The notes below the pieces were generated by a model. The model saw only the letters and a program-made list of their open reading frames with translations. It was not told where the DNA came from and made no database searches. DNA of 64,000 bases from an uncultured Thermoplasmata archaeon (GTDB lineage Archaea; Thermoplasmatota; Thermoplasmata; RBG-16-68-12): positions 1-64,000 of the forward strand of contig CAVYJM010000007.1 in the NCBI GenBank assembly GCA_963768855.1, read 5' to 3'. The position numbers were made by a program, and so were the translations under genes. Position 1 is the first letter of the stretch. Each line of letters starts with the position of its first letter. Shown piece by piece: positions 2,356 through 34,728 of the stretch.

Positions 2356-3405
2356 CGTCAATTGGCGGGGACGGGATCGGCCCGGAGATCGTGGCCGAGG
2401 GAAAGAAAGTACTGGAAGCGGCAGCGGAGACCTACAACTTCGATATCCAGTGGACGGACTTCGATATCGGGGCCGACCGGTATATCAATTCGGGCAAACT
2501 TGTCACCGAAGATGAACTGAAGGAACTCGCGAAGTTCAGGGCAATCTACTTCGGGGCCATTGGCGACGAACGGGTGAAACCAGGCATCCTTGAGAAGGGG
2601 ATCCTGCTCGCTCTCCGCTTCCACTTCGACATGTATGTCAACCTCCGGCCGATCAAGCTCCTCAACGGGGTCGAGACCCCGCTGGCGGGGAAAGGCCCCA
2701 AGGACATCGACTTCGTTGTCGTCCGGGAGAACACAGAAGACTTCTATGTCGGGATCGGCTCCCGGTTCAAGAAGCACGAGAAAAAGGAACTCAACGTCAT
2801 CCGGGATATCTACAGCGTGAAGTTTGGTCTCGATGTCGAGAGCGATGCCGAGGAGATCGCGTACCAGATCGGGGTCATCACCCGCGAAGGTTCACGCCGG
2901 GTCCAGACCTATGCCTTCGACCTTGCCATGCAGAGGAAGAAGAAACTCACCTCCGTTGACAAGGCCAATGTCCTATCTGACGTGTACGGGCTCTGGCGCG
3001 ACGTCTTTACCGAGACCGCGAAAGTCCTATCCCGATGTCAAGACGGACTTCAATTTCGTGGACGCAGTCACCATGTGGTTTGTCAAGAACCCCGAATGGT
3101 TCGACGTGGTCGTGACACCCAACATGTTCGGCGACATCATCACTGACCTCGGCGCCATGATCCAGGGAGGGCTCGGCCTGGCCCCGGGTGGCAACATCAA
3201 CCCGAAGGGGACCTCGATGTTCGAGCCCATTCACGGTTCAGCCCCGAAATACAAGGGAATGGGCGTGGCAAACCCCGTTGCCACCATCTGGGCCGGTTCG
3301 CTCCTGCTCGACCACCTTGGGGAGCACAAGGCAGCAGCGGCAATTGTCACTGCTATTGAAAAGAGCATCAAAGACGGTGTAGTCACCAAGGACCTGGGTG
3401 GCTCT
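2343..3405 (+). CDS. leuB: 3-isopropylmalate (isocitrate/isopropylmalate family) dehydrogenase, frameshift ~3027, 3' end cut by a junction
   Basis: [61 protein letters not shown]; the sequence then switches abruptly into another gene. Confidence 0.85.
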
Positions 3406-3880
3406 GCACCCGTACACGAAAGCGCTCCTGTCCGCAATCCCCGTGCCCGACCCTACGAAGCGCGCGCGGAAGGAGCTGCCCAAGGGGGAGGTGCCCGACG
3501 CCGTCTACCCGCCCGCGGGCTGCCGCTTCCACCCGCGGTGCTCCGCCGCGCTCCCGACCTGCGGCTGGGAGGGGCGGGACCTGCTGGACTTCTTGGAGCA
3601 GCGCTGGCTCGCTCCCGACGTCGCGACGCGAGAGGCCGCCCTCGGACCCGTCGAGGTCTGGTCCGCGGAAGGGCTCGAGGCGTGGAGGCTGGTGAAGGAT
3701 TCCGGGGAGCAGGCCCAGGCGCTCCTGACCGCGGCGCTGGCGGATGCCATGCCCGCGATGCACGGCGCCGTCGAGTCCGTCTCCATGCAGGGTGGTGAGC
3801 TGCGAGTCCGCTTCCGGCCCCCGGCGGAGCTTGCCCCCAAGCAGGTCGAGGGCCGCAGGGTGGAATGCCTCCTCTACTGA
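3404..3880 (+). CDS. C-terminal fragment of an oligopeptide/dipeptide ABC transporter ATP-binding protein (oligo_HPY domain), 5' part missing
   Basis: [17 protein letters not shown] ... [10 protein letters not shown]...C ... VECLLY. No Walker motifs are present because the gene begins at the junction. Confidence 0.8.
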
Positions 3881-3911
3881 GCGAGAAGGCTTAAGTCCTG
3901 CGGGGATTTGA

Positions 3912-4850
3912 GTGCCGGCCATGGAAGACCTCGGTCGGTTCGCGGCATCCTTCCCCCAGTTCTGCGACCGCGCCGCGGTCCGGGTCCCGGGCTCTGGGGT
4001 GCTCCCGTCCCTGGAGGGCGCGCGCCCGTTCGAGATGAGTGCGGAGAACCTCTCCCGCTTCCGAATCGAGGAGCCGAAGGATTCCGAGGCCTTGCCCGCG
4101 ATGCTGAAGCTCGGACCTGAGGCCGTCGCGTTCTACGTCTCCTTCCGGCTCGACTCGGACCGCTGGGGCATCTATCTCCGGGGCCGTGGCGTCAAGGCGC
4201 TCCAGGAAGAGTACCACCGGATCCTGTGGCGGGACCTCGGGAAGTACGCAGATCGCGACGTGAGCGACATCGCCGAGCGCGTCGAGTACAGCCTCGTGCT
4301 GGACTACCTGCTCACCCATGCGAAGTTCCACCATCTCGTGGACCGCACCGCCGCGGCCTGGGAGCAGGAGGCCGGTTCCCCCCGCTACGCACCCTATCAG
4401 GCGAAATGGTATGGCCCGCCTGCCAAGCCCATCGCGCAGCATCCCGAGGACATCGGGAACCTGGAGGAGGCCCTCGCGAACCTCGACGCGTTCCGGACGT
4501 ACGTCAACCCCACCTACGGGGAAGGCGTCGCCGCGGTCGTGGACGGCCGGCTCGATCCGCGCAACGTGGACGAGTGGAAGGCCTTCTTCGTCGGCGGGCG
4601 CTTCGCCGTGGAGATGGCGAACGTGTTCTCGCGGCAGCCCGCGGGCTGGAAGGACTTCTCCCGGTTCCTGAACCGCAAGACCGCCGTGGGCTCGACGAAC
4701 TACGTTCGGATCCAGTACTCCTACAGCCCCGATCTCCTGGAGCGCGGGCAGAAGGAGCTCGCGAAGCGGCTTGCGGGGAACGCGACGCCGCCCGTTGAGA
4801 ACCCTTTCAAGGATGCGAACGTCGAGACGCCGCCGGTGTACCTGTTCTGA
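3912..4850 (+). CDS. Hypothetical protein with a zincin-like, degenerate HExxH region
   Basis: 312-aa ORF with typical GC-rich codon usage; upstream CTTAAG box at ~3890; contains THAKFHHLVD followed by EEALAN. Confidence 0.65.
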   Translation: MPAMEDLGRFAASFPQFCDRAAVRVPGSGVLPSLEGARPFEMSAENLSRFRIEEPKDSEALPAMLKLGPEAVAFYVSFRLDSDRWGIYLRGRGVKALQEEYHRILWRDLGKYADRDVSDIAERVEYSLVLDYLLTHAKFHHLVDRTAAAWEQEAGSPRYAPYQAKWYGPPAKPIAQHPEDIGNLEEALANLDAFRTYVNPTYGEGVAAVVDGRLDPRNVDEWKAFFVGGRFAVEMANVFSRQPAGWKDFSRFLNRKTAVGSTNYVRIQYSYSPDLLERGQKELAKRLAGNATPPVENPFKDANVETPPVYLF

Positions 4851-5011
4851 GCGGCCCGCCGTTCCCCTCGGCGTGTCGGCAATCTCGGGACGTCTCCTGC
4901 GTCTGCATATGGGTGGGCGAACGCGTTTCATGGGACGGCGTCTGGCAGCTTCTGCGACCATCGGTCGAATGCCGGGCCTAGCCTTTTATCGCACGCCTCC
5001 ATTCGACCGCC

Positions 5012-5962
5012 GTGGACGCGGGCGGGAAACCGGAGCCCCGGTGGCTCCTCCAGGCGTCCATGGTTGTCCTCGTCCTGTTCTGGGGCCTCGCGTTCGTCGC
5101 GATCAAGGCCGCCGACGAGCACATGTCCTGGGTCACCCTCACGTTCCTGCGCTTCGTCTTCGCGGACGTCCTCTTCCTGGGCTACCTCGCGGTCCGTAAG
5201 GGCGAGCGAGTCCTCCCGCGGCGTGAGGACTGGCTTCCCCTCCTCGCCCTGGGATTCGTCGGGTTCACCGGCTACCACCTTTTCCTGAACCTCGGGGAAT
5301 CGAACGCGGACGTCACCGCGGGGACTGCGGCGCTCATCATCGCCTCGGACCCGGCATTCATCGCCCTCCTGGCGGTCCCCGTCCTCCGGGAGAAGCTCAC
5401 GGCCATCCGGGGCCTCGGGATCGTGATCGCCTTCGGCGGGCTCGCGGTCATGATTCTCTTCGCGAGCTCGACGAGCCAGCTCCGCTTCGCCTTCTCGACG
5501 GGAGCGCTCGAGGTGGTCCCCTCGGTCGTCTTCACGGCGTTCTACCTGGTGCTCGGGAAGAACTACCTCGCCCGCTACCGCCCGTTCGTCTTCGTGGCGT
5601 ACACGATCATGCTCGGGACCCTACTGACCCTGCCCATCGTGATTGCGGTCTGGCCCACTTTCGTCGGCGACCTCCTCAACCTGACGTGGTCCGGACTCCT
5701 CCCGGTGCTCTTCCTCTCCGTCTGCCCGACGTTCATCGGCTACAGCCTCTGGTTCCGGGCCGTCGAGCGGATGCCCGCGGCGGCGGCCGGCGCCTGGCTT
5801 TACCTCAGCACGCTCACCGCGGTCGTCGGGGGGATCCTCCTGCTGGGAGAGTCCGTGACCGAGGCGATGATCCTCGGGGGCGCGATGGTCATCGGCGGGG
5901 TGGCCGTCGCCCAGCGACTCGGGCGGAACCGAGCCGCCACGGAGAAGCCGTCGGGCGCCTGA
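5012..5962 (+). CDS. EamA/DMT family transporter
   Basis: About 10 hydrophobic segments; EamA patterns FWGLAFVAIK, LTFLRF, LREKLT, LLLGE. Confidence 0.85.
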   Translation: MDAGGKPEPRWLLQASMVVLVLFWGLAFVAIKAADEHMSWVTLTFLRFVFADVLFLGYLAVRKGERVLPRREDWLPLLALGFVGFTGYHLFLNLGESNADVTAGTAALIIASDPAFIALLAVPVLREKLTAIRGLGIVIAFGGLAVMILFASSTSQLRFAFSTGALEVVPSVVFTAFYLVLGKNYLARYRPFVFVAYTIMLGTLLTLPIVIAVWPTFVGDLLNLTWSGLLPVLFLSVCPTFIGYSLWFRAVERMPAAAAGAWLYLSTLTAVVGGILLLGESVTEAMILGGAMVIGGVAVAQRLGRNRAATEKPSGA

Positions 5963-6007
5963 AGGCAAGCGCTTTCATACCTGCGCCGCAGTCGCCCGGA
6001 ACTGGAC

Positions 6008-6853
6008 ATGTGGGCGACACGGCGGGCCACGATGGAGGACGTCCCGGGGCTTCGGGAACTCTGTACCCTCTCCGTGGGGGCCGACGATTACGTCCTCGGT
6101 TTCTTGGAGCCTTTCATCCGCAAGTCCGTGACCTTCGTCGCCGTCGACGGGGGACGGATCGTGGGGATGATGGTCTACGACGACACACCGGACGGGGCCG
6201 TATGGCTCCATGCGGCCCGGACCCACCCGGAACACCGGCGTCGAGGCGTGGCGGCCGCGCTGAACCGCGCGTGCGAAGAGCTCGCCCGTGCCCGGGGACG
6301 CAGCTGCCTCCGGCTGTGGGCAGCTGCGAGCAATACGGCGAGCGTTGCGGCGTCCGCGAGATACGGATTCGAAGAGCGTGCACGCTTCACTCGGATGCGC
6401 ATCTCCGCGGCCCATCCGGCGCAGGAAATGCCTCTCGAGCCGCTCGATCCGGCCGAGGCCTGGACCGCGACCAAGGAGTCCCCGCTCCTGCGCCGAACCG
6501 CGGGCTACGTCTTCCACGACTTCTACTTCCTCCCCCTGAGTCAAGTGAACACGGCGCTCCTCGCCCGCCGGGGCGCGATGTGGCGCTTCGGAGGCAACGG
6601 GGTCGCCCTCTCGGGGGATTTCGAGGAGGCCGGGGGAAAGGACCTGCAGGTCCAATTGCTGTTCGGGGACGCGGCCGAGATTCTTCGGGCGGCTCCCGCG
6701 ATCGGACGTGCCCGTGGCGCAGAACGGGTGGAGTCCTTCCTTCCCCACGATGCCGCGATCCTCGCATCCGCGCGCCGCGCGGGCTACGACTTCATGGAAT
6801 GGGGCCAGGAGGCCGTGCTTTTCGAGAAGCCAGTTCCGGCGACGAGCGAGTAG
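6008..6853 (+). CDS. GNAT family N-acetyltransferase
   Basis: Acetyl-CoA motif THPEHRRRGVA and NTASVAASARYGF. Confidence 0.8.
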   Translation: MWATRRATMEDVPGLRELCTLSVGADDYVLGFLEPFIRKSVTFVAVDGGRIVGMMVYDDTPDGAVWLHAARTHPEHRRRGVAAALNRACEELARARGRSCLRLWAAASNTASVAASARYGFEERARFTRMRISAAHPAQEMPLEPLDPAEAWTATKESPLLRRTAGYVFHDFYFLPLSQVNTALLARRGAMWRFGGNGVALSGDFEEAGGKDLQVQLLFGDAAEILRAAPAIGRARGAERVESFLPHDAAILASARRAGYDFMEWGQEAVLFEKPVPATSE

Positions 6854-22936: not shown

Positions 22937-23090
22937 GATCGTCCCAGTGAAGCCCGTCCCGGTTAAGCCTTTCCCGCAATCCGGCGGCGCAGGCCCATCC
23001 ATCGGAGCAATCCTTAGTCGTGGAGCGGGTCCCCGAGTGCGTCGTCCGCTCCTTCTTGCGGGGGCCAGCGTCTCCCTTGATATAGCGTCG

Positions 23091-23138
23091 TTCCGTTCGC
23101 CTCCTCGCTCCGGAATCGCGGGGGAGGCGGAACAGGAA
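23091..23138 (+). promoter_or_regulatory. Long 5'-UTR hairpin upstream of the LysA-like gene
   Basis: ttccgttcgcctcctcgc-[9 nt]-gcgggggaggcggaacaggaa pairs over ~18 bp with bulges; ends 1 nt before ATG 23140; TATA-like gatatag at ~23079. Confidence 0.45.
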
Positions 23139-23139
23139 C

Positions 23140-24558
23140 ATGGGCGCGGTGCGACGTTTGGACGATTGCCTGTCCGTCCGGGAGGGACGGCTCTTCATCG
23201 AGGAATGCGACGCCGCCGAGCTGGCGAAGCGGTTCGGGACGCCCTGCTACGCGGTCTCGGAAGACCAGCTGCGTCGGAACGTGCGGCGATTCCAGCGCGC
23301 GTTCTCGGATCGGTGGCCGGAGGGCCCCGTGCACGTCCTGCCCTCGATCAAGGCGAACTTCACGCTCGCCCTCCTGCGGATCCTCGCCCAGGAGGGGACG
23401 GGCTTCGACACGTTCGGACCGAGCGAGCTGCACGCGGCGCTCGAATCGGGCGGGGACCCCGCCCTGATCTCGGTGAACGGCTCGAGCAAGGACCGTCGGA
23501 TCCTCGAGGCCGCGGTGCGCGCAGGAGCCCGTGTCACCCTGGACAGTGCCGCAGAGGCGGACCGGGTGCGGGAGGTCGCGAGGGACCTCGGGGTTCGCGC
23601 GAAGGTGCGTTTCCGCCTCCGCCCGCGGTATGAGGGTCTCGACCATCCGTCCGACTTCTACGAGGACGAGACGTCGGTGCGGGTCGCCGCCCAGCAGTAC
23701 AAGCCTGGAATCCCCGCGGCTGACTTGATGAAGCTGGGCCGAAAGATGCTGTCGGCCCCCGAGGTCGACGTCACGGGCGTCATGGCCCACCTCGGCCGCC
23801 ACAGCACGGACCTGGACGTCTGGCGCGGGATGGTCCGCAGCTTCGTCGACATGATCGTCGAGGTGTCGGCGGCGTGGGGCGGCTGGCAGCCGCGTGAGAT
23901 CGACCTTGGCGGGGGCTACGCGACGCGCCGCGACCCGACCGGCCGGACGACGGCGCGCGGCCAGCGCCGGTCCCTCGAGGATCTGGCCCCGTCCATCGAA
24001 GAGTACGCGGACGCGCTGACCGGGACGCTGCGCGCCGAGCTCACGCGGCATGGACTGACCGCGGAGGGGAAGATCCTCGAGGTCGAGCCGGGCCGGAGCC
24101 TCTTCGCCGATGCGGGGATCCATCTGACCACGGTGCGGAATCTGAAGTCCCAGGAGGAGCCGATGCCCTGGCGGTGGGTCGAGACGGACACGACGGAGAT
24201 GTTCCTCCTCGATGGGCTCGTGGAACACAACCGGTGGACTCCGATCGTGGTGGACAACGCGGCCGCGCCGAGCACGCAGATCGCGGATGTGGTCGGGATC
24301 TCGTGCGGATTCGACGTCATCGTCCACCAGGCCTCCCTGCCGCTCGTCGCGCCGGGTGACGTGATCGCGTTCCTGGACACGGGTGCGTACCAGGAGGCGT
24401 GCTCGAACAACTTCAACGGGCTTCCGCGCCCGGCGACCGTCCTCGTGTCCGGTTCCGAGGCCGAGGTGGTCAAGCGCGGGGAGACCGTGGAGGACGTGTT
24501 CCGCCGGGATACCGTCCCGGCCCGGCTCAGGGCTGCCGCTCCGGAGGCCGCGCCATGA
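23140..24558 (+). CDS. Diaminopimelate/ornithine decarboxylase family (LysA-like) PLP enzyme
   Basis: FGTPCY, SIKAN (PLP lysine), HLG, IDLGGG, EPGRSL, C-terminal GISC, GAYQ, NFNG. Confidence 0.85.
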   Translation: MGAVRRLDDCLSVREGRLFIEECDAAELAKRFGTPCYAVSEDQLRRNVRRFQRAFSDRWPEGPVHVLPSIKANFTLALLRILAQEGTGFDTFGPSELHAALESGGDPALISVNGSSKDRRILEAAVRAGARVTLDSAAEADRVREVARDLGVRAKVRFRLRPRYEGLDHPSDFYEDETSVRVAAQQYKPGIPAADLMKLGRKMLSAPEVDVTGVMAHLGRHSTDLDVWRGMVRSFVDMIVEVSAAWGGWQPREIDLGGGYATRRDPTGRTTARGQRRSLEDLAPSIEEYADALTGTLRAELTRHGLTAEGKILEVEPGRSLFADAGIHLTTVRNLKSQEEPMPWRWVETDTTEMFLLDGLVEHNRWTPIVVDNAAAPSTQIADVVGISCGFDVIVHQASLPLVAPGDVIAFLDTGAYQEACSNNFNGLPRPATVLVSGSEAEVVKRGETVEDVFRRDTVPARLRAAAPEAAP

Positions 24559-25022
24559 GGGTCCTCGGCCTCGACCACGTCTCCGTCAGTGTGGCACACC
24601 TCGAGCGCTCCCTCGCTTTCTACCACGAGCTGCTCGGCATCCCCGTCCTGGGCACCGGGACCGAGGAGAGCCCGTCCGTCACGTCCGTCGTTGGTGCGGG
24701 GCCCGCGCGATTCCGCTATGCGGACCTCGACCTCGGGTCCGGGCAGATCCTCGAGATCCTCCAGTATTTCACCCCGAAGGGGACACCGCGTCACTCGGAC
24801 GTGTACGATCCCGGCAGCGGGCACCTGGCCGTGCGAGTCGACGACCTCGGACGTGCCCTCGAAAGCCTGGCCAAGGCGGGCGTCCACCCGCGATCCGAAC
24901 CCGTCAAGCTGGAGGAACCTGCGTGGTGGGCCGAAGCGCGCGTCGTGTATGTGACCGATCCGGACGGGATTACGATCGAGCTGGTGGAGCGACCCGGGCG
25001 GACCGCCAGTGCACGCCGCTGA
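24555..25022 (+). CDS. VOC/glyoxalase family protein
   Basis: LDHVSVSV, HLAVRVDD, DPDGITIELVE; ATGA overlap with the LysA-like gene. Confidence 0.85.
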   Translation: MRVLGLDHVSVSVAHLERSLAFYHELLGIPVLGTGTEESPSVTSVVGAGPARFRYADLDLGSGQILEILQYFTPKGTPRHSDVYDPGSGHLAVRVDDLGRALESLAKAGVHPRSEPVKLEEPAWWAEARVVYVTDPDGITIELVERPGRTASARR

Positions 25023-25050
25023 CCCGCTGCCGCCGGTTTCGCCTCGCGCC

Positions 25051-25602
25051 TTAGGCCGATTGGAAGTCCGCAGTGGCGACGAGGCTGCCGTCAGACCAGA
25101 GCAACAAGAACGTGTAGGCCCCAACGGGTAGGGAGCCCCGGGTCGAGCCGATGGCGAACGAGTCTCCGACGCCGAGCCTCCCGTCGGAGTCGTGGTCGGA
25201 CCAGCGGACCGTGAAGTTCGTGGGGTATGCGGAGGTGTTCAGGATGCTTGCCGTCCCGTTGTTGACGGACGGCATCGGCGCGGAGAGCCCGTACGAGCCG
25301 TTGAACATCAGGTTCACCCTGAATGACGAGACGCTGCTCGTGGTCGTGTATCTCCCTTCGGTTAACGATGCGATAGGAATTTCCTCACCGGATGGGATAG
25401 CGACAGGAGTCCCGAACGTGACGAAGGGTTTGCACGAGTCGCATGGAGGGCTCGTGGGCGGTCCGGCGACCGAGAGGGCGTAGGAGATTCCTCCGATGGC
25501 CGCTGCGAGGACCAGGACGGCCATCACGAGGACGAGGGCGGCTCCACTCGACGGGGATCGCGGTGGGTGCGCTCCGGGTGGTCCGATCGAGACCGGTTCC
25601 AA
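25051..25602 (-). CDS. Membrane-anchored secreted protein, pilin-like C-terminal beta domain possible
   Basis: One N-terminal TM helix; D.DSDGRLGVGDSF.I motif near the C-terminus. Confidence 0.55.
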   Translation of the reverse strand: MEPVSIGPPGAHPPRSPSSGAALVLVMAVLVLAAAIGGISYALSVAGPPTSPPCDSCKPFVTFGTPVAIPSGEEIPIASLTEGRYTTTSSVSSFRVNLMFNGSYGLSAPMPSVNNGTASILNTSAYPTNFTVRWSDHDSDGRLGVGDSFAIGSTRGSLPVGAYTFLLLWSDGSLVATADFQSA

Positions 25603-25698
25603 GATCTCCCTCCGGAACGGAGACGGAAGCCTATGGATTGAGTACTTTCGGTAGGGCTCGGATGGTCGTACCGCTGGCGTCCGCGAGCTCGAATGACT

Positions 25699-26259
25699 TC
25701 AGCCGAGGTCCTTCCGCATCCGAATCTCCCGGGCGCCCGCGCCGATGGCCCGGGTCCACGCGTTTTCCTCCTCATGGGTGACCCGGTACCCCAGCGACTG
25801 CCACCACCCCAACGACTTCCAGGGCACGCCCGCGGTGTTCCGGCTCGTGCCGAGGGTCACCGCACGCTTGCCACGCTTGCGGGCGCTCTCTTCAATGAAC
25901 CCCACGAGCTGGCTCCCCAAACCGTGGCCCTGGTGCTCACGGGCCACGTCGATGTTCACCAGCTCGAGCTCCTCGCCGCGGTCCTCGAGCGTGACGCAAG
26001 CGACCACACGGCCTCCGAGCTCGGCCACGATCACCTCCTCCCCCCGGACGAGATTGGGATCCCACCACGCATCGGAGAGCCGTGCAACGTCCGTGAAGGT
26101 CTGCTCAGAACGCGGCGTGCCGAAGCCGAGGACCTCTTCGTCCGTTACGGCTGAGTTGGAAACGTGGACGACCGAGGGGATGTCCTCCCGCGTGGCCGGG
26201 CGAATACGAAGACGGTTGTGATCCGCGGACGTAAGCCCGGGATCCCGCCTATCGCCCAT
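25699..26259 (-). CDS. GNAT family N-acetyltransferase
   Basis: IRPAT.ED, IDVAREHQGHGLGSQL, WQSLGY. Confidence 0.8.
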   Translation of the reverse strand: MGDRRDPGLTSADHNRLRIRPATREDIPSVVHVSNSAVTDEEVLGFGTPRSEQTFTDVARLSDAWWDPNLVRGEEVIVAELGGRVVACVTLEDRGEELELVNIDVAREHQGHGLGSQLVGFIEESARKRGKRAVTLGTSRNTAGVPWKSLGWWQSLGYRVTHEEENAWTRAIGAGAREIRMRKDLG

Positions 26260-26680
26260 CGCTCTTCCGCTTCTTCGGGTTCCGTGCAGCAGTCGCCCGT
26301 TTCCGCTTCCGACTCCGCGTGGCGTTCTCTGCCACGCGCGCTTTCACGATGCGGGAGACCAGGTCAGCGGCGAGGGGTCGGTCGGGGGTGAAGTGGATGG
26401 TCCCCTTCCCCGCCTCGAACGGTTTCAATTCGGTGGAGAACCGACGGCGACTCTGGGCGCTCCCCACGAAGAAGCTACAGTGGTCCTTGAATGCGGCATA
26501 GTGCACGAGCATCCCGTTTTGCCGAAAGGCCGGCATTTGATAGCTGATGACCTCATCCGCGTCGGGGGCGGCTGCCTTGATGGTCTTCCGTAGCTCCTGC
26601 AACCCAGTCCGAAACTTGGGCGGGATGCGTGCCAGGTACTCGTCGACCGTCTTCGGGGCGGGGGCCCGTTGGGGCGCCAT
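26249..26680 (-). CDS. DUF1801 (YdhG-like) iron-chaperone family protein
   Basis: TVDEYL, LRKTIKAAAPDADEVISYQMPAF, KGTIHF. Confidence 0.85.
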   Translation of the reverse strand: MAPQRAPAPKTVDEYLARIPPKFRTGLQELRKTIKAAAPDADEVISYQMPAFRQNGMLVHYAAFKDHCSFFVGSAQSRRRFSTELKPFEAGKGTIHFTPDRPLAADLVSRIVKARVAENATRSRKRKRATAARNPKKRKSDGR

Positions 26681-26821
26681 GACGAAGGAACCGGTGCGGG
26701 TTGCCTTAAGGGTTCGGCTTCGCCCGCACGATGGCCCTTTTGTCGCCGGTCAGGGTGAACGGACACGCACCTCTGCGTAGCAGGAATCGGAGGGTGGAGT
26801 GCGGACTCGAAAGCCAAGCCA

Positions 26822-26884
26822 GTGACCTAGGGAACGGGCCCTCGCACCCCCTTCCGTTCGGATTACGTTGACGCAGCCCCGTTG
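26822..26884. repeat. Degenerate, internally deleted second copy of the att junction at 27306-27405
   Basis: gtgacctagggaacgggcc[c/g]tcgcac at 26822-26847 vs 27306-27331 (26 bp, 1 mismatch), then ccccttc[c/t]gttcgg and ta[c/t]gtt..ac...gccccgtt matching ~27370-27405. Confidence 0.75.
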
Positions 26885-26917
26885 ACTGCCCACGCCCGCC
26901 CGCGAGGGGCGGGCACG

Positions 26918-27241
26918 TTACCCTTTCGGCGCTTGCGTATCAGACGACGGGTGCCCGCACGCGGCACAGGCCGACTGACCCCTGTACACGTCACCGCCGC
27001 ACTCGGGGCAAGCGTATAGGAACGGTAGGGCTGGCCGCGTTCCTTGGGAAGCGGTCCCGGCCGCAGTATCCCCGGCGAGCGCCAAGACGGCAATTCCGAT
27101 TAGGACGATCGCGAACATGAGTGCCAGGCCGCCGAAGAAGAACACGCCCACAACCGCCACGAAAATCCCTGCTATCGCGAACCCGACAGCTGCACCGCCC
27201 GCACCGGCCATGCTCCGGCACCACCGGCCCGCGAAATGCAT
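26918..27241 (-). CDS. Small membrane protein with a C-terminal zinc ribbon
   Basis: Two TM helices then CPEC...CAAC; lies between the two repeat copies. Confidence 0.65.
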   Translation of the reverse strand: MHFAGRWCRSMAGAGGAAVGFAIAGIFVAVVGVFFFGGLALMFAIVLIGIAVLALAGDTAAGTASQGTRPALPFLYACPECGGDVYRGQSACAACGHPSSDTQAPKG

Positions 27242-27347
27242 CTTCGAGCTTGAAGATGTTCTTGGTCCCGCTTCGCGACGGAGGACGGCTTCAGACCCCG
27301 AGATCGTGACCTAGGGAACGGGCCGTCGCACGACTGTCATTCGATCG

Positions 27348-27382
27348 AGGGCCAGGTGACCGCCGTACGCCCCCTTCTGTTC
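27348..27382. repeat. att site at the distal end of the element: displaced copy of the rnpB 3' end
   Basis: agggccaggtGaccgccGtacgcccccttctgttc matches 32748-32782 at 33/35 positions. Confidence 0.9.
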
Positions 27383-27416
27383 GGCGTATGTTACTCTGCC
27401 CCGTTCCCCAAGCCAT

Positions 27417-27442
27417 GAGGACCCCGCGGCCGCGGGGTCCTC
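27417..27442. repeat. Perfect 26-bp palindrome upstream of rep
   Basis: gaggaccccgcggccgcggggtcctc equals its own reverse complement. Confidence 0.9.
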
Positions 27443-27479
27443 CCCTTACCTGGGGGCCGGGCCGTGAAGGTCCCATCGC

Positions 27480-28619
27480 ATGGGCCTCCGCTCTCTTCGT
27501 CGCCCACGCGAATCCCGAGCTGGAAGTCGTCGTCGCCGGGAGCCCGGGGAGATCTCCGACTTCCTCAATGCCCACGGAGAGGTCCGCCTCGAGAATGTCC
27601 GGGCCTTCGGGTTCGACGTAGGGAAGGACCGCGCGGTCCTCGAGGACCTGTACCTGGCGTGGGTCGACGATGACGACTACCTCGTGATGAAGGTCCTGAA
27701 GGACGAAGGCGGGGCCGTCGAATCCCTCATGCGTGTCTACAAGGCCCGGAAGCGCGGTAACGACGTCGACGTCGCCGCGCAGCCAAACGCCTCCACGGCG
27801 TGGAGTACGCCTGGAGCCTTCGGTGGCTCGGCAAAGCACGCTTGCGGGCAGCTCGTCTATCTCACAGGAACCGTTGCGACGGGAGATCTGGAGGCGTGGG
27901 AGTCTGGGATGCCGTCCCGCTGGAGTGGTCCCGATACCTCGCGCGCATCCGCGGGCGGTTCGGCCGCGTTCTGGTCCTCCGATCCTGGGAATCGACGGGC
28001 AATGGATACGCGCATGTCCACGCACTCCTGGCGTTCCTCGATTACGTCTTTGCGGATCTCTGGCTCTCCATTAACCGAAGACCGGCGAGACCCGCTGGCG
28101 GGTATCGAACGAGATCGGGCCGTCCTCCGCGATTGGCCCCTCGGGTTTGTCGACGTCCAGGCCGTCGTGGGGGAGAACGCAGTGCGCGGGCGGATCGCGG
28201 ACGTCCTCAATTACGTCGTGAAAGGCGTCCTCGAGGCCCGCGGCGGAAAGGAGATCTGGAACCGCGCCGCCCTCTGGTTCATGGGCAAGCGGTCCTGGGG
28301 GATTACGAAGGAGCTCCGGGCACGTACCCTGCTGTACGACTCGATAGAACGGGGCGACGAACGGACTCCTAGCATAACCCAAAAAGCGCCGTGGGTCCGC
28401 GTGGTCTTCCTGGGCATGGTCAAACGGTTTTCGACGGAGCTCCAGGCCTCGGACTGGTTCAAGGTCTACGAGGACCCGCCCGAATGGGTAGGCGCGATCT
28501 GGGTTCCGAAGCGTAGTCAGGCTGAGACCAGCGGGCGGTCTCGGGCTCGGGGAGGTGTTCGCGCATGGAAACGCTTGATGGATCCACGGAGGGCTGCCCA
28601 GATTGCGGAAAGCCGTTGA
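27480..28619 (+). pseudogene. HUH-superfamily rolling-circle replication initiator (Rep), frameshifted
   Basis: Motif-1-like LVYLTGTV and motif-3-like NYVVK lie in the 27480 frame; motif 2 ESTGNGYAHVHALL lies in the 27800 frame. Also KRGNDV and W..GFVDV. Confidence 0.75.
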
Positions 28620-29014
28620 CGATCATCCTGAGCCCGGTCCTCAAGGAGCAGGGTTGGGGTTGCGGGGCGTGCAGCTTCCGCACGATCTGGTCCCGCATCC
28701 TCCGCGGAAGGACGATCACGCCCCCTGGTGTGGCATTGCAACGTCTGCGGGTGGGATCAGTACGACGCGGGCACGACGCTTCGCCATGCCATCAACGTTC
28801 ACCGGGTCGCCGACTGGGACGCCGCGATGAAGCTCGGGCGATACGTCGACGTCGTTTGCCCTGCGTGCAAAGGCGAGGGTCGCGCGCCGCGGAGATCTGC
28901 CGTCGGTGCCTCGGCCGCGGCTTCATCGATCGCTCGAGCGGGAGGTGGTTAGTTGAGACTCCAGGACGCTCTAACTCTTCGCCATGTTCTCGAGGGTGCG
29001 CTTCGCAGCCCTGA
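28565..29014 (+). CDS. Zinc-ribbon microprotein (3' extent uncertain)
   Basis: CPDC...CGAC in the first ~40 aa; the rest overlaps another ORF and may be spurious. Confidence 0.4.
   Translation: METLDGSTEGCPDCGKPLTIILSPVLKEQGWGCGACSFRTIWSRILRGRTITPPGVALQRLRVGSVRRGHDASPCHQRSPGRRLGRRDEARAIRRRRLPCVQRRGSRAAEICRRCLGRGFIDRSSGRWLVETPGRSNSSPCSRGCASQP
28728..28952 (+). CDS. Zinc-finger microprotein
   Basis: CNVC...H...H (C2H2-like) and CPAC. Confidence 0.5.
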   Translation: MWHCNVCGWDQYDAGTTLRHAINVHRVADWDAAMKLGRYVDVVCPACKGEGRAPRRSAVGASAAASSIARAGGG

Positions 29015-29212
29015 GCGAATCGGGCAGCCGACGTCTTGCGAGCTTGAGGGCGTGCCCTTTCAAGACCGAATTGCGAATGGTAATGAGGCCGCACTCTGGA
29101 AGCACAGGAGGCCCGCTTCGATGAATCTCTTTTGACCTTCAGGCGATGCCCCGCGCACGTAAACCCGACGCGCAACCATGTGACATTGTGGACAACGGAT
29201 CTTCTTGCGCAT
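28971..29212 (-). pseudogene. Zinc-ribbon microprotein, apparent 2-nt frameshift
   Basis: Manual: MRKKIRCPQCHMVARRVYVRG...GLLC then a shift to PECGLITIRNSVLK...AKS*. Span is 242 nt (80 codons + 2). Confidence 0.4.
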
Positions 29213-29253
29213 GACTCCAGAACGATGCCTGGTATAGTATACTTTACCATGAC

Positions 29254-29841
29254 GTGGGGGTGGGGCGGTTGAGGGGTTACAAGCGTGAGTACTACCGGAA
29301 CCCTCCGGACTACTGCCTCGATTGCAGACGTCCTCTCCGGTCCTTCGACTCGCAGACGTTCCACCTCTGCGGCATGTGCTCGCGGATCAGGCGATTGAGC
29401 TCGCGCGATCGCGGACGGCTTCGAGGCTCCGGAGCCATGGGACGGGTGGGGCACATGAAGTTCTCCGTCCTCGGAATCTCGGTTGACATCACCCGGGCGG
29501 ACATCGCGGGCGTCGTCCTCCTGGGCGGCGCGTTCCTTCTCGCGGTCCTTGTCCTCGGAAGGCGGAAGCATGACCGCGGCCGACAAGCGGGGCGAGGCGA
29601 TCGCGCGCACGAACCGGAGGCGCGAGCGGCGCAACCGGAGACTCGCACGCCGCGCCGATCGGATCGCGCGTCGACGTGCGCAGCGGGAGGCGAGAGGTTG
29701 AGCCGACGCCGCCCGCATCGTGGTCGACATCGCCGCCCTCGAGCGCGGAAGCCCGGGCGTCCTCATGCCCGGAAGCCGGTCAACCCGCACGATCGCTTCC
29801 GCCGGAACCGGCCAAGGGTACGGTTCAATCGGAGGCGGTGA
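29254..29841 (+). CDS. Hypothetical ORF: Zn-finger N-terminus (CLDC...CGMC) plus a single-TM segment; possibly several merged micro-ORFs
   Basis: Track ORF; internal MKFSVLG...GVVLLGGAFLLAVLVLGRRK is a clear TM helix. Confidence 0.4.
   Translation: MGVGRLRGYKREYYRNPPDYCLDCRRPLRSFDSQTFHLCGMCSRIRRLSSRDRGRLRGSGAMGRVGHMKFSVLGISVDITRADIAGVVLLGGAFLLAVLVLGRRKHDRGRQAGRGDRAHEPEARAAQPETRTPRRSDRASTCAAGGERLSRRRPHRGRHRRPRARKPGRPHARKPVNPHDRFRRNRPRVRFNRRR
29570..29701 (+). CDS. Arg-rich basic microprotein (43 aa)
   Basis: MTAADKRGEAIARTNRRRERRNRRLARRADRIARRRAQREARG. Confidence 0.35.
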   Translation: MTAADKRGEAIARTNRRRERRNRRLARRADRIARRRAQREARG

Positions 29842-29847
29842 TAACCT

Positions 29848-30135
29848 ATGACGCTCGACAAGACCGACCCGCCGACGGATGAGGATTGGATCATGTTCCT
29901 CTTGACGCACCCGAGGTTCCTCGATAAGCCGCTCTCGCAAGCGCAGATCGCCGAAGGGCTCGGCGTATCACGGCACACAGTCAACCTGAAGATCGGGCGG
30001 GTGAAGCACTGCCTCGCCCAGGCTCTCGCAGGCGCGGCCCTCCTCATGAAGCAGGACCCGAAGGGTCATGGTCTCTCCGAGAGAGAGGATGAAGTCGTCG
30101 AGGACGACGAGGACACCGACCTCAATCTCCCCTGA
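29848..30135 (+). CDS. Helix-turn-helix DNA-binding protein
   Basis: LSQAQIAEGLGVSRHTVNLKIGR HTH; acidic tail. Confidence 0.75.
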   Translation: MTLDKTDPPTDEDWIMFLLTHPRFLDKPLSQAQIAEGLGVSRHTVNLKIGRVKHCLAQALAGAALLMKQDPKGHGLSEREDEVVEDDEDTDLNLP

Positions 30136-30661
30136 AGGAATCGCCCTGGTATCCCATTTGCGTGTAAGCCATGGATTAGCATGTCTGACGAGGCGGAGAG
30201 TAGGATAATAGGGTCACTTTGCCTCATGCCCGCGATGCGTGGGAGCTTCCCGCACCCGCATCCCTAACGCTCCGGCCGCCCGCGGCTCTGTCCTCTTAGG
30301 GCGCGGCGAATTGATGGGGCCCTGACTAACCTAGCTCAAACACTAGGCTTAACACTTAACAGTTCTTTTTCTTGTGGGCGAAATCCCCCCTTCCTAATCA
30401 CTCAAGCGCTAAAGGCCGGTTAGCAGTTAGCAGAACCCCAGACCCGCGGTGCCACCGAGGAGCGTAAGCGTCAAGCGCTCGCTCACGCTGTCCGGTGGCA
30501 CACGGGAGAGGGAAGGCCGGCGCGTCGGTTCCCAAATCAGCGCCCCGACCTTCCCCCCGAAATCACGACGACAGCTTCAAGCGCCCCGGTGCCCTTCGCC
30601 CTCCCGGGAACCGACGCGGAAGGGCGCTCGCCTTTTCGACGTCCTCTCAGGAGATCGGAGA

Positions 30662-30901
30662 ATGTCTGAAGCGGCAGTCGTCGGCATGGGTGCGCAGGCG
30701 GAAGACCAGCCCGACAAGATGGGAACGGGCAAGCGCCAGGTCTGGGCGATCGTGCTCATGGTGCCGGGCCCAGACCTGAAGCTCGGCCTCGAGGTGGGCG
30801 GGAAGATCCGCGCGCTCCTGGTCAAGGAATACCCGGAGCTGAGCGACCGGCTCGTGGGCGAGATCTACAACCCCCGGAATGGAACCGGCGCTGACTTCTG
30901 A
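30662..30901 (+). CDS. Hypothetical microprotein of the element
   Basis: 79 aa from ATG 30662 with an upstream GGAG. Confidence 0.5.
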   Translation: MSEAAVVGMGAQAEDQPDKMGTGKRQVWAIVLMVPGPDLKLGLEVGGKIRALLVKEYPELSDRLVGEIYNPRNGTGADF

Positions 30902-30913
30902 CCGGGGCGGTCC

Positions 30914-31096
30914 ATGGCGAACCGCGTCCGGTGGGTCGATCGGAAGACCGGGGAAGCGGAGACCTACACGGTCTACTACCCTGGAGAGGACTCGATGCCT
31001 AGAGTGGCCGCGGCCCTCCAGGCGCTCGCGGGCCCTGCCCCCGGCCATCCTCTCGGCTTCCGATGGGAGCTCCGGCCTCGAGAACCGCGTCGATAG
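30914..31096 (+). CDS. Hypothetical microprotein of the element
   Basis: 60-aa ORF starting 12 nt after the previous stop. Confidence 0.45.
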   Translation: MANRVRWVDRKTGEAETYTVYYPGEDSMPRVAAALQALAGPAPGHPLGFRWELRPREPRR

Positions 31097-31176
31097 CCCA
31101 GGATTCCCCCCGGACTAACTGGCCCCCGGGGGCCAGTTAGTCTCAGGCCGGCGTTGGTGCTCCGCCGGCCCTTTTT

Positions 31177-31551
31177 CTCCATAGAACAACCCCTCTCCAT
31201 TAACCTCAAATGCCTCGGTGTCTATCTCCATCTTGGTCCTCCCGCAGCATGTAGAGCAGGGAACGGTTGGACCGGGCCGCGGGGCCTGTCCTTGCCCGAT
31301 AAACCCCGCGGCCTTTGGAATCTCTCCATAGGGTTTAGGGTCTAGGCCACCCTGCCGAAACCCCCCCGACGTTCCCATGGAGAAAGCGGGGGAGTAGGGG
31401 TACCGTGCTACTGACCCCCCTCGATTCTCTCCATAGGCGTGTCAAACGAGTTTCCCCTCCCCATGCAGGGGTCAAAAACCGCGATTTCCAACATGGAGAA
31501 ACCGACCGAAAACATGGAGTAGCCTCCATGTGGCGGGCAAATTCCCTCCAT
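31177..31551. repeat. Cluster of about 10 CTCCAT/ATGGAG hexamers upstream of the integrase
   Basis: CTCCAT at 31177, 31195, 31226, 31324, 31429, 31524, 31546; ATGGAG at 31377, 31493, 31514; several extend to TCTCCATAG. Confidence 0.65.
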
Positions 31552-31779
31552 AGAAGGTAATATCCATGAGAACTCTATCTCCCCTGTCCGGCAAGGACAA
31601 ATGGTTTCTAAGCCCCAAATCCATGTCGGCGTCGCTCGCGTCCAAGGGGAACGAACGCGAGTAGTTGGCCGACATGACCCACGATCGCGGCTTCGCGTCG
31701 CGTGCAACCCTACGTGGGGCGGGGCAGAACGACAGGGATTCTCGCTAGGATCCTCAAGCCGAACGGGAGGGAATCCCGG

Positions 31780-32622
31780 ATGAACTTCAAGTCGTTCGTC
31801 CGGGCGAAGGCCAGGACCGCCCTGGCGGATTCGACCCTCGAGCTGTACGAACGTGACGTCCGGGGAATCCTCGGATGGCTCGGCGCACGTCCTCTCACGG
31901 TCGAGACCGCGCAGGACGTCGAAGCCTGGTTCGCTTCGAGGACCAAGAAGCCCAATACCCTCCAGCGGTGGATTACCTCTCTGAACTGGCTCCTTCGCTG
32001 GAAGGGCGTGGACTACCAGGCCCGCCGGCCTCGGAAGGAACTCAACCTGAACCCGCGGACGATCTCCGACGAGGAGTACGACCAGGCCATCGCGCGGCTC
32101 CGGGACCCGATGGAACGTCTCGCGGTCCTGATTTCGCATGAGACCGGGTGGTCTCCCTCCGACGTCGTGCAGATCCGGCGGGCGGACATCGACCTGTCCG
32201 GCGACCAGGCGGTCATCCGACGCTTCCGCCAGAAGACGAAGGCGATCGGAACGCCACTTCTCGGGAAGGATCTCACGGATGAGCTGCGGGCGTACCTCGC
32301 GGCGAACCCGGAGCTCGACTTCATCTTCCCGGGAGACAAGCGGGACGGACTCCCGCACCGGAACCGGACCTGGGTGAATGCGGTCCTCAAGCGCACGGGG
32401 GCCGCGTTCAGCCCGCGAGCCTTCCGGTCCAACCTGGCGACCAAGTGGCCCGGAGACAACATCGAGGGCCTGATGCGCCAGGGAATGTGGAAGGACCCGC
32501 GGACGATCTTCCAGAACTACCGCGGCAACAGCCTGCCGCGCCAAGCATCCTCCCTCGAGGCGGCGATGGGCCGCCTGGGGAAGGACCCGAAATCGACCGA
32601 AGATGTGCCTGGCTACGGGTGA
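31780..32622 (+). CDS. Tyrosine recombinase/integrase (XerC/D-like fold), atypical active-site residues
   Basis: SAM-like N-terminal domain (STLELYERDVRGILGW, PNTLQRWITSL); box I ETGWSPSDV; FIFPG; SPRAFRSNLAT; MWKD...IFQNY. GGGAGG Shine-Dalgarno before ATG 31780. Confidence 0.85.
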   Translation: MNFKSFVRAKARTALADSTLELYERDVRGILGWLGARPLTVETAQDVEAWFASRTKKPNTLQRWITSLNWLLRWKGVDYQARRPRKELNLNPRTISDEEYDQAIARLRDPMERLAVLISHETGWSPSDVVQIRRADIDLSGDQAVIRRFRQKTKAIGTPLLGKDLTDELRAYLAANPELDFIFPGDKRDGLPHRNRTWVNAVLKRTGAAFSPRAFRSNLATKWPGDNIEGLMRQGMWKDPRTIFQNYRGNSLPRQASSLEAAMGRLGKDPKSTEDVPGYG

Positions 32623-32747
32623 TTCACATATCCGGTCCTTCTGTTAGTTCATGGAGAGATTTCGTATACAATGTGTACGCGGTCTCTCAGGGGGTCCGCA
32701 CATACGCCCGGCCGGGATGTGCGGTCCCTCCGGTGGGTCCTGACAGA

Positions 32748-32782
32748 AGGGCCAGGTCACCGCCATACGCCCCCTTCTGTTC
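32748..32782. repeat. att site overlapping the 3' end of rnpB
   Basis: agggccaggtCaccgccAtacgcccccttctgttc, 33/35 identical to 27348-27382. Confidence 0.9.
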
Positions 32783-33039
32783 TGACGGCATTGGACTAAG
32801 CGTCCTACCTGGCGCAAAGCGCCTTTTTGGACTTGCTCCGGTGGGGTGTCGCCGTCTCACCAGGTCCCGCACCAACGTCTTCGCCAGCGCGATTCATCCT
32901 CGGTGCGGGCTGTGTCGTTTCTGCGCCCTTGCCGGCCCTCTCAGGCCCCCCGCTTGCACGGGGCCACCTCTCGTAAGGAGGGGGGACGTTCCTCAGCTGC
33001 CCTTGCGGGCTACCGTCGGCCGTCCGCGGTCTCCTGGCC
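32750..33039 (-). ncRNA. rnpB: RNase P RNA (archaeal)
   Basis: Minus strand: P1 GGCCAGG..ACCGC / GCGGU..CCUGGCC; CR-I GAGGAACGUCCCCCC; AGAAACGAC; ACCCCACCGGAGCAAG; CR-V AACAGAAGGGGGCGUA. P4 pairing is compensatory relative to the familiar GAAAGUCC/GGCUUA consensus. TATA-like CATATAG ~25 nt upstream. Confidence 0.9.
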
Positions 33040-33129
33040 GACGCGCCCATCGGGGCAGGGCTATATGGAGTTTGTCTCCTTGCGTTCCGCGGGCGCGAGG
33101 TTTATGCCGGAGTCCGGCTAGAATAGACC

Positions 33130-33486
33130 ATGTCGACCCCCAAGACGTTCCACCCCGAGGGCCTGCGCCGCGAGCACGAGAGCAAGGGCAAGGCATACAT
33201 GGAGTTCCTCCGGGAGCCCGCGATGAGCGCGGGCCTTTACATCCTCCCCACGTCCAGTGAGGATCCTCAGTCGCCGCACACGGAGGACGAGGTCTACGTC
33301 GTCCTGAACGGGCGCGGCAGCATCCAGCTGCCCGGGGAGGATCGGCCCGTCGTGAAAGGCTCGATGGCCTACGTCCCGGCGCACACGGAGCACCGTTTCC
33401 ACTCGATCGAGGAGCCGCTCGAGGTCCTCGTCCTGTTCTCTCCCGCGGAGGGCAGCCACTCGGGGGCCGCGGGCGCCGAAGCCTAA
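33130..33486 (+). CDS. Cupin domain protein
   Basis: PHTEDEVYVVLNGRG...YVPAHTEHRF. Confidence 0.85.
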   Translation: MSTPKTFHPEGLRREHESKGKAYMEFLREPAMSAGLYILPTSSEDPQSPHTEDEVYVVLNGRGSIQLPGEDRPVVKGSMAYVPAHTEHRFHSIEEPLEVLVLFSPAEGSHSGAAGAEA

Positions 33487-33516
33487 GCCTTTATCCCCGC
33501 GAGCCATCGCGGCGGC

Positions 33517-34728
33517 GTGGCCGGAGATCGCCGCGTCCTCCTGGTGAACAGCGTCTACCACCTCACGAACGACGGCGCGGTGCAGGTCCTCTCCGGGCAG
33601 ATCGCGATCCTGACCGGCGTCTTCGCGTTCGGGCCGTTCGAGACAGGCATCCTGGCCGGGACCTCCCTCCTCGTGAACGCGATCGTCCAGGTCCTCACCG
33701 GCGTGATGAGCGACCGCCGCGATCCGTCCCGGTTCCTGCCGTTCGGCATCCTGATCGTCGGCGTAGCGAGCTTCCTCGTGGCGGCGGCCACCTCGTTTTG
33801 GGCGCTCCTCCTCTTCGTGTCCCTCCTCCGCGTCGGCGCGAGCTTCTACCACCCGGTCGGCATGTCGTGGATCGGCCGCGAGTTCGCGCCCGAGGAGCTC
33901 GACCGGTCCATGGGCTTCCAGTCCGGCTTCGGCGACGCGGGCGAGGTGCTCGGGACCGCGACGGGAGCGATCGTCGGCATCGCCTGGGGATGGCAGTGGG
34001 GCTTCGCGATCTGGGGCGTGACCAATCTCGCCGCGGTCGCGTTCGGCCTCATCCTCGTGCGGGGCCATCCGTCCCCGCCCGTGTCCCGCTCCCCGATCCA
34101 GTGGCGGGACCTCTGGCGCTCGATGTGGGACGTGAGGTTCTGGCTCCTCCCGCTCGCAATCGGGAGCGTGAGCTACAACGTGATCGCTTTGTTCGGGCCG
34201 CAGCTCCTGCACGAGGTCTACGGCGTCAACGCCGGAGTCGCGGGGCTCGTGGTGGCCGTCTGGCTCGGAATCGGGACGGTCATCGCTCTCTCGTTCGGCC
34301 GCCTGAGCCGCCGCTTCGGGCGCTTCGGATTGACCGTGTTCGCGTACGCGGCCGTAGGGTTCGCTTGCCTGGGGGCCGCCACCTTGGGCAACGAGTGGCT
34401 CATCTTGGCGGTGCTCTGGACCCTGGGCGCAGGAATCTTCCTGACCTACCCCGCGCTGTTCGCGTTCGCCTCCCAGGCGAGCCACCGCCAACTCCAGGGA
34501 GCCGCCTTCGGCCTCGTGTTCTTCTTCCAGCTCCTTGGCGGGGCGATCGGCTCATTCGTCGCAGGCGCCCTGTCGAATGTCTTCTCCTCGAGTCCGCTGC
34601 TGACCTACACCGCGCCGTTCTGGTTCGCCTCGGTCGTCTCCCTGGCCACGGCCGTGTACCTGATCGTCCTCCGCAAGCGGGCGACTCCGGCTGACGCTCC
34701 GAGACCCCCGACCTCCCCTGCACCATAG
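33517..34728 (+). CDS. MFS transporter
   Basis: 12 TM helices; GVMSDRRD and GRLSRRFGR loop motifs. Confidence 0.85.
   Translation: MAGDRRVLLVNSVYHLTNDGAVQVLSGQIAILTGVFAFGPFETGILAGTSLLVNAIVQVLTGVMSDRRDPSRFLPFGILIVGVASFLVAAATSFWALLLFVSLLRVGASFYHPVGMSWIGREFAPEELDRSMGFQSGFGDAGEVLGTATGAIVGIAWGWQWGFAIWGVTNLAAVAFGLILVRGHPSPPVSRSPIQWRDLWRSMWDVRFWLLPLAIGSVSYNVIALFGPQLLHEVYGVNAGVAGLVVAVWLGIGTVIALSFGRLSRRFGRFGLTVFAYAAVGFACLGAATLGNEWLILAVLWTLGAGIFLTYPALFAFASQASHRQLQGAAFGLVFFFQLLGGAIGSFVAGALSNVFSSSPLLTYTAPFWFASVVSLATAVYLIVLRKRATPADAPRPPTSPAP

Follow-up and report, generated by a model that had tools for sequence, protein, structure and literature searches.

Integration of mobile elements into tRNA and tmRNA genes is textbook knowledge, and, as was reportedly described by Reiter in 1989 and by Williams in 2002, genomic islands, plasmids and proviruses with tyrosine integrases are integrated in the 3' ends of these genes. 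Genomic islands at such sites make up the class known from Islander and TIGER (PMC4383910). For archaea, a review of tyrosine recombinases published in 2021 lists only tRNA genes, protein genes and intergenic sites as targets (PMC8371274). In 2025, the ffs gene of Enterococcus faecalis, which encodes the 4.5S/SRP RNA, was presented as a novel non-coding RNA attachment site, used by phage phiEf11 (PMC12540744). The gene for RNase P RNA (rnpB) was not found as an attachment (att) site in the literature that could be covered, where it serves only as a marker or reference gene; most subscription journals lie outside this coverage, and the absence is unproven. The present analysis concerns a stretch of 64,000 nucleotides (hereafter the window; contig CAVYJM010000007.1 of GenBank assembly GCA_963768855.1, positions 1 to 64,000, forward strand) from an uncultured Thermoplasmata archaeon, the genome of which is a 2.87-Mb metagenome-assembled genome of 24 contigs. 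It contains a region that is very probably a small integrative plasmid, which entered the chromosome at the 3' end of rnpB through recombination by a tyrosine integrase.

The RNase P RNA gene and its displaced 3' end

A full-length archaeal RNase P RNA gene was recognized with Infernal at 32754-33035 on the minus strand (RF00373, model positions 1-288, 182.4 bits with a gathering score of 84). It is the sole Rfam match in the 64-kb window, and no tRNA gene was found there with ARAGORN. A repeat finder recovered two direct repeats, at 27348-27382 and 32748-32782, which are identical at 33 of 35 positions and have a start-to-start spacing of 5400. The right repeat comprises the final 29 nt of rnpB, that is, CR-V and the 3' strand of P1, together with 6 nt past the gene. 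The original prediction for this DNA had pointed to the same repeats, to the same offset and to the rnpB 3' end as the right copy; it had also held that integration regenerates an intact rnpB, and the Infernal match to the complete model agrees with this. In a 64-kb window of the same composition, a 33/35 match has a chance expectation of about 2e-7, according to our own binomial estimate with a per-base match probability of about 0.28 and about 2e9 position pairs. The repeats enclose 5,365 bp, and the predicted circle has 5,400 bp.

The origin of the two copies can be read from the two positions at which they differ. In the present rnpB, helix P1 contains a G5.G mismatch and a G11.U pair, both marked as such by cmscan. 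With C as the partner in both places, the distal copy would restore the Watson-Crick pairs G5-C and G11-C. Moreover, a comparison of 3' ends revealed that the sequence of the distal copy is the rnpB 3' end of nearly all other genomes of the genus. Since the distal copy is genus-typical and pairs in P1 and the proximal one is mismatched, these data show that the distal copy (attR) is the displaced host end of rnpB and that the proximal copy (attL) was brought by the element. The way in which the two mismatches are sorted between the copies is what integrase-mediated insertion predicts. Variants are sorted likewise in six other elements of the same integrase family, with element-type bases at attR positions 1-8 and attL positions 18-25, so that strand exchange is confined to positions 9-17 of the 35-mer, GGGGGCGTA, within CR-V.

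An empty site exists in a related genome, G009, as the original prediction had proposed to check. The rnpB of G009 is 98% identical to that of the window, and the two genomes are collinear to either side of it, except that G009 lacks the element. In G009, the rnpB 3' end is followed directly by a homolog of window positions 27331-27280, which form the flank of attR. Among 37 further genomes of the genus, 4 encode a homolog of the integrase (G005, G019, G050 and G051; 39-46% identity), and in each of them its gene immediately follows the rnpB 3' end and converges on it. None of the other PF00589 matches in the genus is located on the contig with rnpB. A complete element was found in G051, where two 34-nt repeats with a spacing of 4791 bp have between them the integrase and a 670-aa helicase of the MCM family, and no Rep. 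Many assemblies of the genus end 0.3-3 kb after rnpB, which is expected if this spot is variable. A related-locus search of genome contigs returned only three loci, all of them already known.

Taken together, the following course of events can be proposed. The attP site of the element would be an imitation of the rnpB 3' end, roughly 31-35 nt long, located between conserved arms. The integrase would recombine this site with the 3' end of the host rnpB, and strand exchange would occur inside the 3' part of CR-V. The gene keeps its own promoter and body and now ends in about 18 nt supplied by the element, and the original end was pushed 5.4 kb away, where it marks the far border. When not integrated, the element would be expected to undergo rolling-circle replication by means of its HUH Rep. 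The copy in the window is presumably still able to excise, its Rep is probably active, and the chimeric RNase P RNA can be assumed to be fully functional.

The integrase family and its free circles

The integrase gene is located between the repeats, where a tyrosine recombinase had been anticipated, and this assignment is supported by sequence and confirmed by the fold of the model. Its product matches the PHROG_1 integrase with E = 2e-21. In Foldseek searches, its AlphaFold model (pLDDT 89.6) retrieved IntI (2a3v), XerA (5hxy), Cre and lambda Int at a probability of 1.00 over about 300 columns, and the model displays the two-domain fold of tyrosine recombinases, with a SAM-like core-binding domain and a catalytic domain. 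In the alignment of the family, the catalytic K, RxxR, W and Y are invariant throughout. The open reading frame (ORF) of the integrase gene (int) is whole, and the att site lies outside it, 126 nt beyond the stop codon.

A profile search of 5.8 billion proteins yielded a family of about 56 integrases, and the locus contexts of twelve clusters of this family were examined. At every inspected locus, no more than about 250 nt separate the int stop codon from an rnpB 3' end or from an rnpB-like att. Both att copies are present in L045 (4791 bp), L065 (3985), L077 (8461), L078 (4369), L081 (4786), L082 (5007) and L096 (11657), and int adjoins rnpB in L062-64, L075/76, L079, L083 and L084. The same architecture occurs in independent assemblies from JGI, ENA, NCBI and Logan. 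These loci show that the integrase family as a whole is tied to rnpB. It had been asked in advance whether the homologs of the integrase neighbour rnpB or tRNA genes; the answer is rnpB, both in the four genomes of the genus and in all inspected database members. The family occurs in 9 of 401 sampled genomes of the class, all in one order and across four families. In G027, which represents another family of this order, the element measures 11,657 bp, and its integrase lies at the far end, co-oriented with rnpB.

Two members of the family were found as free circles. The first is a contig of 4929 nt (L066-L069), which four runs yielded in as many circular permutations, the ends of each overlapping by 30 nt. 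The second, L080, has 4955 nt and likewise a 30-nt terminal overlap. Each circle carries a single attP with 31-35 nt of the rnpB end and no rnpB body. The attP is flanked on the left by an arm as at attR (TGGGGAACGA ... ATAATCC) and on the right by an arm as at attL (TTCTGTCGT ... CATGGAGAGA). Sites with both arms around one core are the attP that the integration model requires. An attP of the same kind is present on a 26-kb contig, L074, which also carries D5-like and ParB genes. The rnpB-targeting family of integrated plasmids in Thermoplasmata-like archaea that the original prediction had suggested is thus supported by the family-wide link between int and rnpB and by the two circles.

The proteins encoded in the rest of the window element had no tblastn match in any of the other examined elements, which means that the int/att module alone is common to the elements of the family. 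In the relatives, the integrase/att module is combined with other modules for replication (MCM, D5-like). The 8.5-kb rnpB-integrated relative L077 encodes, at 1485-6382, an N6/N4 methyltransferase, a SIR2_2 protein and an AAA_21/AAA_15 ATPase, which, judging from their domains, are defence-like cargo on this module. Another member (L070, 984-1059 and 3749-4278; L071) has a tRNA gene inside the element and DUF7557/ParE-toxin genes past the att; its integrase lies at the distal end, co-oriented with the att. In L091 (G313:C169), a degenerate stretch that resembles the last ~55 nt of rnpB, including part of the body, is found about 800 nt past the att, at about 628, and it may be a longer displaced fragment of an older event.

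The arms of the att sites have features of their own. Their motifs are conserved across the attL and attP sites of the family, and the left arm of the window element contains a perfect 22-nt palindrome at about 27420-27441, just upstream of rep. In the right arms, the core-like sequence GGCGTA[CT]G is repeated ~45-50 nt from the core (window 32699-32712; L045, L065, L066, L074, L075, L077, L080 and L081). In the window and in L074, the right-arm copy of this sequence has the same T variant as the core of the element. The arm copy hints at a candidate second binding site of the integrase.

Gene content, alternative explanations and older remnants

The features of the element and of its surroundings are collected in Table 1. 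All genes of the element are on the plus strand according to the frame plot.

Table 1. Positions of features in and around the element at rnpB (window coordinates).
Feature	Position	Strand	Remarks
Putative older remnant behind attR	26796-27347		second copy of native rnpB-downstream sequence, 26796-26847 versus 27280-27331
Membrane/zinc-ribbon ORF, 107 aa	26918-27241	-	in the remnant behind attR
attR: displaced original host rnpB 3' end	27348-27382		genus-typical sequence
Left arm of former attP	27383-27463		conserved TGGGGAACG motif (minus strand) about 20 nt from core
HUH rolling-circle Rep gene	27464-28578	+	374 aa in intact copy on L085; three frames in window, 10 bases missing from assembly
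Multi-zinc-ribbon protein	28565-28956	+	131 aa on L085, six CxxC pairs; frameshifted in window by missing bases
Three small ORFs, read on L085	29254-29701	+	68-aa zinc ribbon, 45-aa membrane peptide, 43-aa arginine-rich peptide
HTH DNA-binding protein	29848-30135	+	95 aa; Sigma70_r4 and HTH matches, all under cut-offs
Two small ORFs	30662-31096	+	79 aa and 60 aa; function without assignment
Tyrosine integrase	31702-32622	+	306 aa from GTG; database form 280 aa from ATG 31780; converges on rnpB 3' end
Right arm of former attP	32623-32747		between int stop codon and core; CATGGAGAGA motif, imperfect hairpin, core-like GGCGTATG repeat
attL: rnpB-proximal repeat copy	32748-32782		CR-V/P4 3' strand, P1 3' strand, 6 nt beyond gene
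rnpB	32754-33035	-	RF00373; intact after integration; last ~18 nt element-derived

The replication gene cannot be read directly from the window. A 379-aa ORF at 27480-28619 was considered as the Rep and rejected, as a plot of GC content by codon position shows that the coding frame switches twice inside it; the ORF is a frame artefact, and the real Rep of 374 aa extends across three reading frames. When Logan contigs from a sediment metagenome were aligned to the window, extra C residues appeared at 27774, 28521, 28523, 28688, 28701, 28886, 28932 and 29095. In an exhaustive search with HMMER, the 374-aa protein P0058 was retrieved, which aligns to residues 20-352 at 80% identity (76% in multiple alignment A3). 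This protein is encoded on L085, an ENA contig of 5309 nt that corresponds to window positions 27372-32663 at 98.8% identity and has 18 extra bases, most of them C, within 27472-29568 (2.1 kb). Because the missing bases are present on L085 and, as far as these extend, on the short-read contigs, and because an intact Rep of 374 aa results, the frameshifts of the window are assembly errors and not decay. Single bases, mostly C, are probably missing throughout the contig, and ORF calls elsewhere in the window may be broken in the same way.

The Rep contains the motifs TxT, HxH and YxxK in canonical order. T136, T138, H186, H188 and Y253 do not vary among 19 homologs, K256 is almost invariant, and in the window these residues are likewise encoded, in shifted frames. 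Two homologs exceed the cut-off of 27.8 bits for PF23343 (REP_ORF2-G2P), namely P0060 with 29.0 bits and P0062 with 31.2 bits, and the closest homolog, P0058, reaches only 16.1. Other homologs have weak matches to Rep_1 and RepSA (RepSA in one, E = 0.0097). With VIA-align, the core of the Rep model (residues 113-293) was superposed on SIRV1 ORF119 (2x3g) with Z 9.5 and an rmsd of 3.6 A over 113 of 116 residues, followed by 9pqf (Z 8.0), 6h8o (Z 7.7) and the Helitron structure 7lcc (Z 7.5). Proteins of vientovirus, nanovirus, circovirus and Helitron, as well as RepB, superpose on this core at Z 6.6-8.0, and the top Foldseek rows for the model are Reps too. The motifs, the Pfam matches of the homologs and the predicted fold support the assignment of the rep product as an HUH Rep. 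An archaeo-eukaryotic primase-polymerase, suggested by WVDDDD and sGxGxHxH-like strings, was ruled out by the TxT/HxH/YxxK motifs, the Pfam Rep matches and the HUH fold. The original prediction was therefore right in that an HUH Rep is encoded, as the intact homologs and the fold match indicate, and the 379-aa ORF as such does not stand.

Apart from Rep and Int, no ORF of the corrected copy (L085) is longer than 131 aa. The Rep pieces of the window and the small ORFs had no match in Pfam or PHROGs. The HTH protein and the microproteins that had been expected between the repeats were recovered, the latter in part from L085. The region of the HTH gene is shared at high identity with far more abundant variant contigs in one sediment metagenome. 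In run X1, variant contigs of this region (29714-31218) have a word depth of 17-178 versus 2-3 in the host flanks, a difference between element and flanks that is not to be read as copy number.

Several points weigh against a small integrative plasmid at rnpB. The window integrase reaches only 23.9 bits with PF00589, under the Pfam cut-off of 27.1, and its relatives in G051, G005, G019 and G050 reach 42-57 bits. In addition, its first catalytic arginine (Arg I) is replaced by Ser (GWSPSD versus G[LMF]RPSD in relatives), and this reading is confirmed by an identical short-read contig. Logan contigs of three runs (X1-X3) over 25500-34500 contained no circle-junction or empty-site joints for the window element, which at the low depth of 2-5x says little either way. 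The details of the small ORFs depend on the second assembly, L085, given the many indel errors of the window. Finally, rolling-circle replication is predicted from the protein family of the Rep. L085 itself is a separate contig that starts within one att, stops 85 nt before the other is reached and is not closed; its ends would fit a branch of the assembly graph at the att.

The replaced arginine and the interrupted Rep frame of the window would be in keeping with a fixed fossil, that is, an element of the same origin that is locked in the chromosome by an integrase without Arg I and by a broken Rep. This explanation is improbable, since the interruptions of rep are errors of the assembly, as the intact gene on L085 demonstrates, and the att pair of the window is still identical at 33 of 35 positions. 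Moreover, GW[SN]P is kept in about 20 family members that are 48-100% identical to the window integrase (alignment A5). Members of this group are found in elements with near-identical att pairs (L077, 34/35; L078; L065) and on the unintegrated contig L074 with its attP. In all of the about 20 members, the second residue ahead of the catalytic Lys is Arg (RQKT), whereas it is Thr in the canonical G[LMF]RP subclade (TQKT). In the same alignment, the loss of Arg I covaries perfectly with the gain of Arg at Lys position -2 (window 32146-32160 and 32218-32229). The covariation suggests a relocated active-site arginine, and Ser in place of Arg I is read from the aligned sequences as a conserved variant active site, not as decay. 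The notion that the integrase is dead through the change of Arg I to Ser was dropped as the leading explanation, as the change is a conserved trait of the subclade.

A different kind of element might also be considered. Some archaeal pleolipoviruses use HUH-type Reps, and an HUH Rep together with several tiny membrane and zinc-ribbon proteins could belong to a provirus of small size, such as a membrane virus that resembles pleolipoviruses and has a rolling-circle Rep. However, neither virion genes (capsid, spike or packaging ATPase) nor transfer genes were detected in the element with Pfam and PHROGs, and the corrected copy has little but short ORFs beside Rep and Int. Known pleolipovirus genomes have 7-16 kb, and the element, with 5.4 kb, falls below this range. 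A provirus in place of a plasmid is therefore very improbable. The error-prone assembly, with its many single-base deletions, might even raise the suspicion of a chance repeat or an assembly artefact around ordinary chromosomal genes. The chance expectation given above, the recurrence of the architecture in independent assemblies of four sources, the empty site of G009 and the reproduction of the element on the independent contig L085 leave practically no room for this view. The small integrative plasmid that entered at rnpB is the explanation preferred here.

The surroundings of rnpB appear to have been visited before. Behind attR, there is a second copy of the native rnpB-downstream sequence, which is 75% identical to the first. 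Beside it lie a 12-nt decayed att piece and a stretch that resembles the left arm and contains a hairpin (26848 to about 26930). Judging from this arrangement, the segment appears to be what is left of an earlier element, with an attP that reached into the downstream sequence, and would be a case of tandem accretion. Another variable segment lies a few kb from rnpB, as G009 has nothing that corresponds to window positions 22940-25700 between its flanking syntenic genes. Away from rnpB, contig 6 of G000 (875029-875114; L007 1501-1586) contains an 86-nt solo copy, 88% identical, of the left arm, of the hairpin and of the final 16 nt of the att core. It begins exactly at the inferred crossover side, and no integrase, tRNA or rnpB was found near it. 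This solo copy may be a relic of insertion at a secondary site.

Meaning and comparison with known systems

As a rule, mobile elements choose the most conserved stable RNA genes for docking, and the use of rnpB extends this rule to an essential, single-copy ribozyme of archaea. For island-finding software, rnpB is a new anchor gene, and the element family explains why many Thermoplasmata assemblies break just past this gene. The compact int/att modules, about 1.2 kb in size, can be offered to a lineage that has no genetic tools, and the integrases with Ser in place of Arg I form a natural series for enzymology. The chimeric P1, with two G-C pairs replaced by G.G and G.U, offers a testable example of ribozyme editing by a mobile element. 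A wider picture can be drawn only tentatively, and it is rather less likely than not to hold in all its parts. It comprises an archaeal integrase clade specialized on rnpB, about half of which lacks Arg I and perhaps has a relocated Arg by the Lys, and elements whose P1 3' strand and downstream hairpin alter, and could control, the maturation or stability of RNase P RNA.

Among the replication proteins, the Rep shares its motif order and fold with SIRV1 ORF119, with the Reps of CRESS-DNA viruses and with RepB of pMV158 (PF23343, PF01446 Rep_1). It differs from these HUH Reps in an N-terminal extension of ~110 aa and a C-terminal domain of ~80 aa without an assigned family, and its similarity to the Pfam families is marginal. 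The combination of a tyrosine integrase and a rolling-circle Rep on a small element is known from integrative elements of the pSAM2 type (AICEs). In contrast to the element described here, pSAM2 is bacterial, is integrated in a tRNA-Pro gene and carries an FtsK-like transfer gene. An FtsK/SpoIIIE-like translocase had no Pfam match in the present element, where the ORFs other than Rep and Int leave no room for it.

With respect to the integrase, the closest arrangement is that of the non-partitioning integrases of the pNOB8 type, in which the att also lies outside the int ORF and the gene is whole after integration. Unlike them, the integrases described here form a separate small family, found in one Thermoplasmata order among 401 genomes of the class, with one subclade that lacks Arg I. 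The partitioning integrases of the SSV type differ more clearly, as their att lies inside the int ORF and splits the gene, whereas int stays whole here.

As a target, rnpB resembles the ffs site of phiEf11, which is also a non-tRNA structural RNA gene that serves as attB, with a block of identity common to attP and attB. There, however, the element is a tailed phage of a bacterium and the RNA gene is another one; here, small plasmids of an archaeal host use rnpB. The islands of tRNA and tmRNA genes also resemble the present elements. In both cases, int lies beside the att, the copy from attP regenerates the RNA gene, the displaced fragment marks the far border, and tandem remnants as well as empty sites are found in relatives. 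The difference lies in the target, which is the single-copy, essential ribozyme gene rnpB, and in the crossover, which takes place in the CR-V/P4 strand and not in a tRNA stem-loop. The mechanism is the known one of tRNA/tmRNA-type integration, and the target, rnpB, is new.

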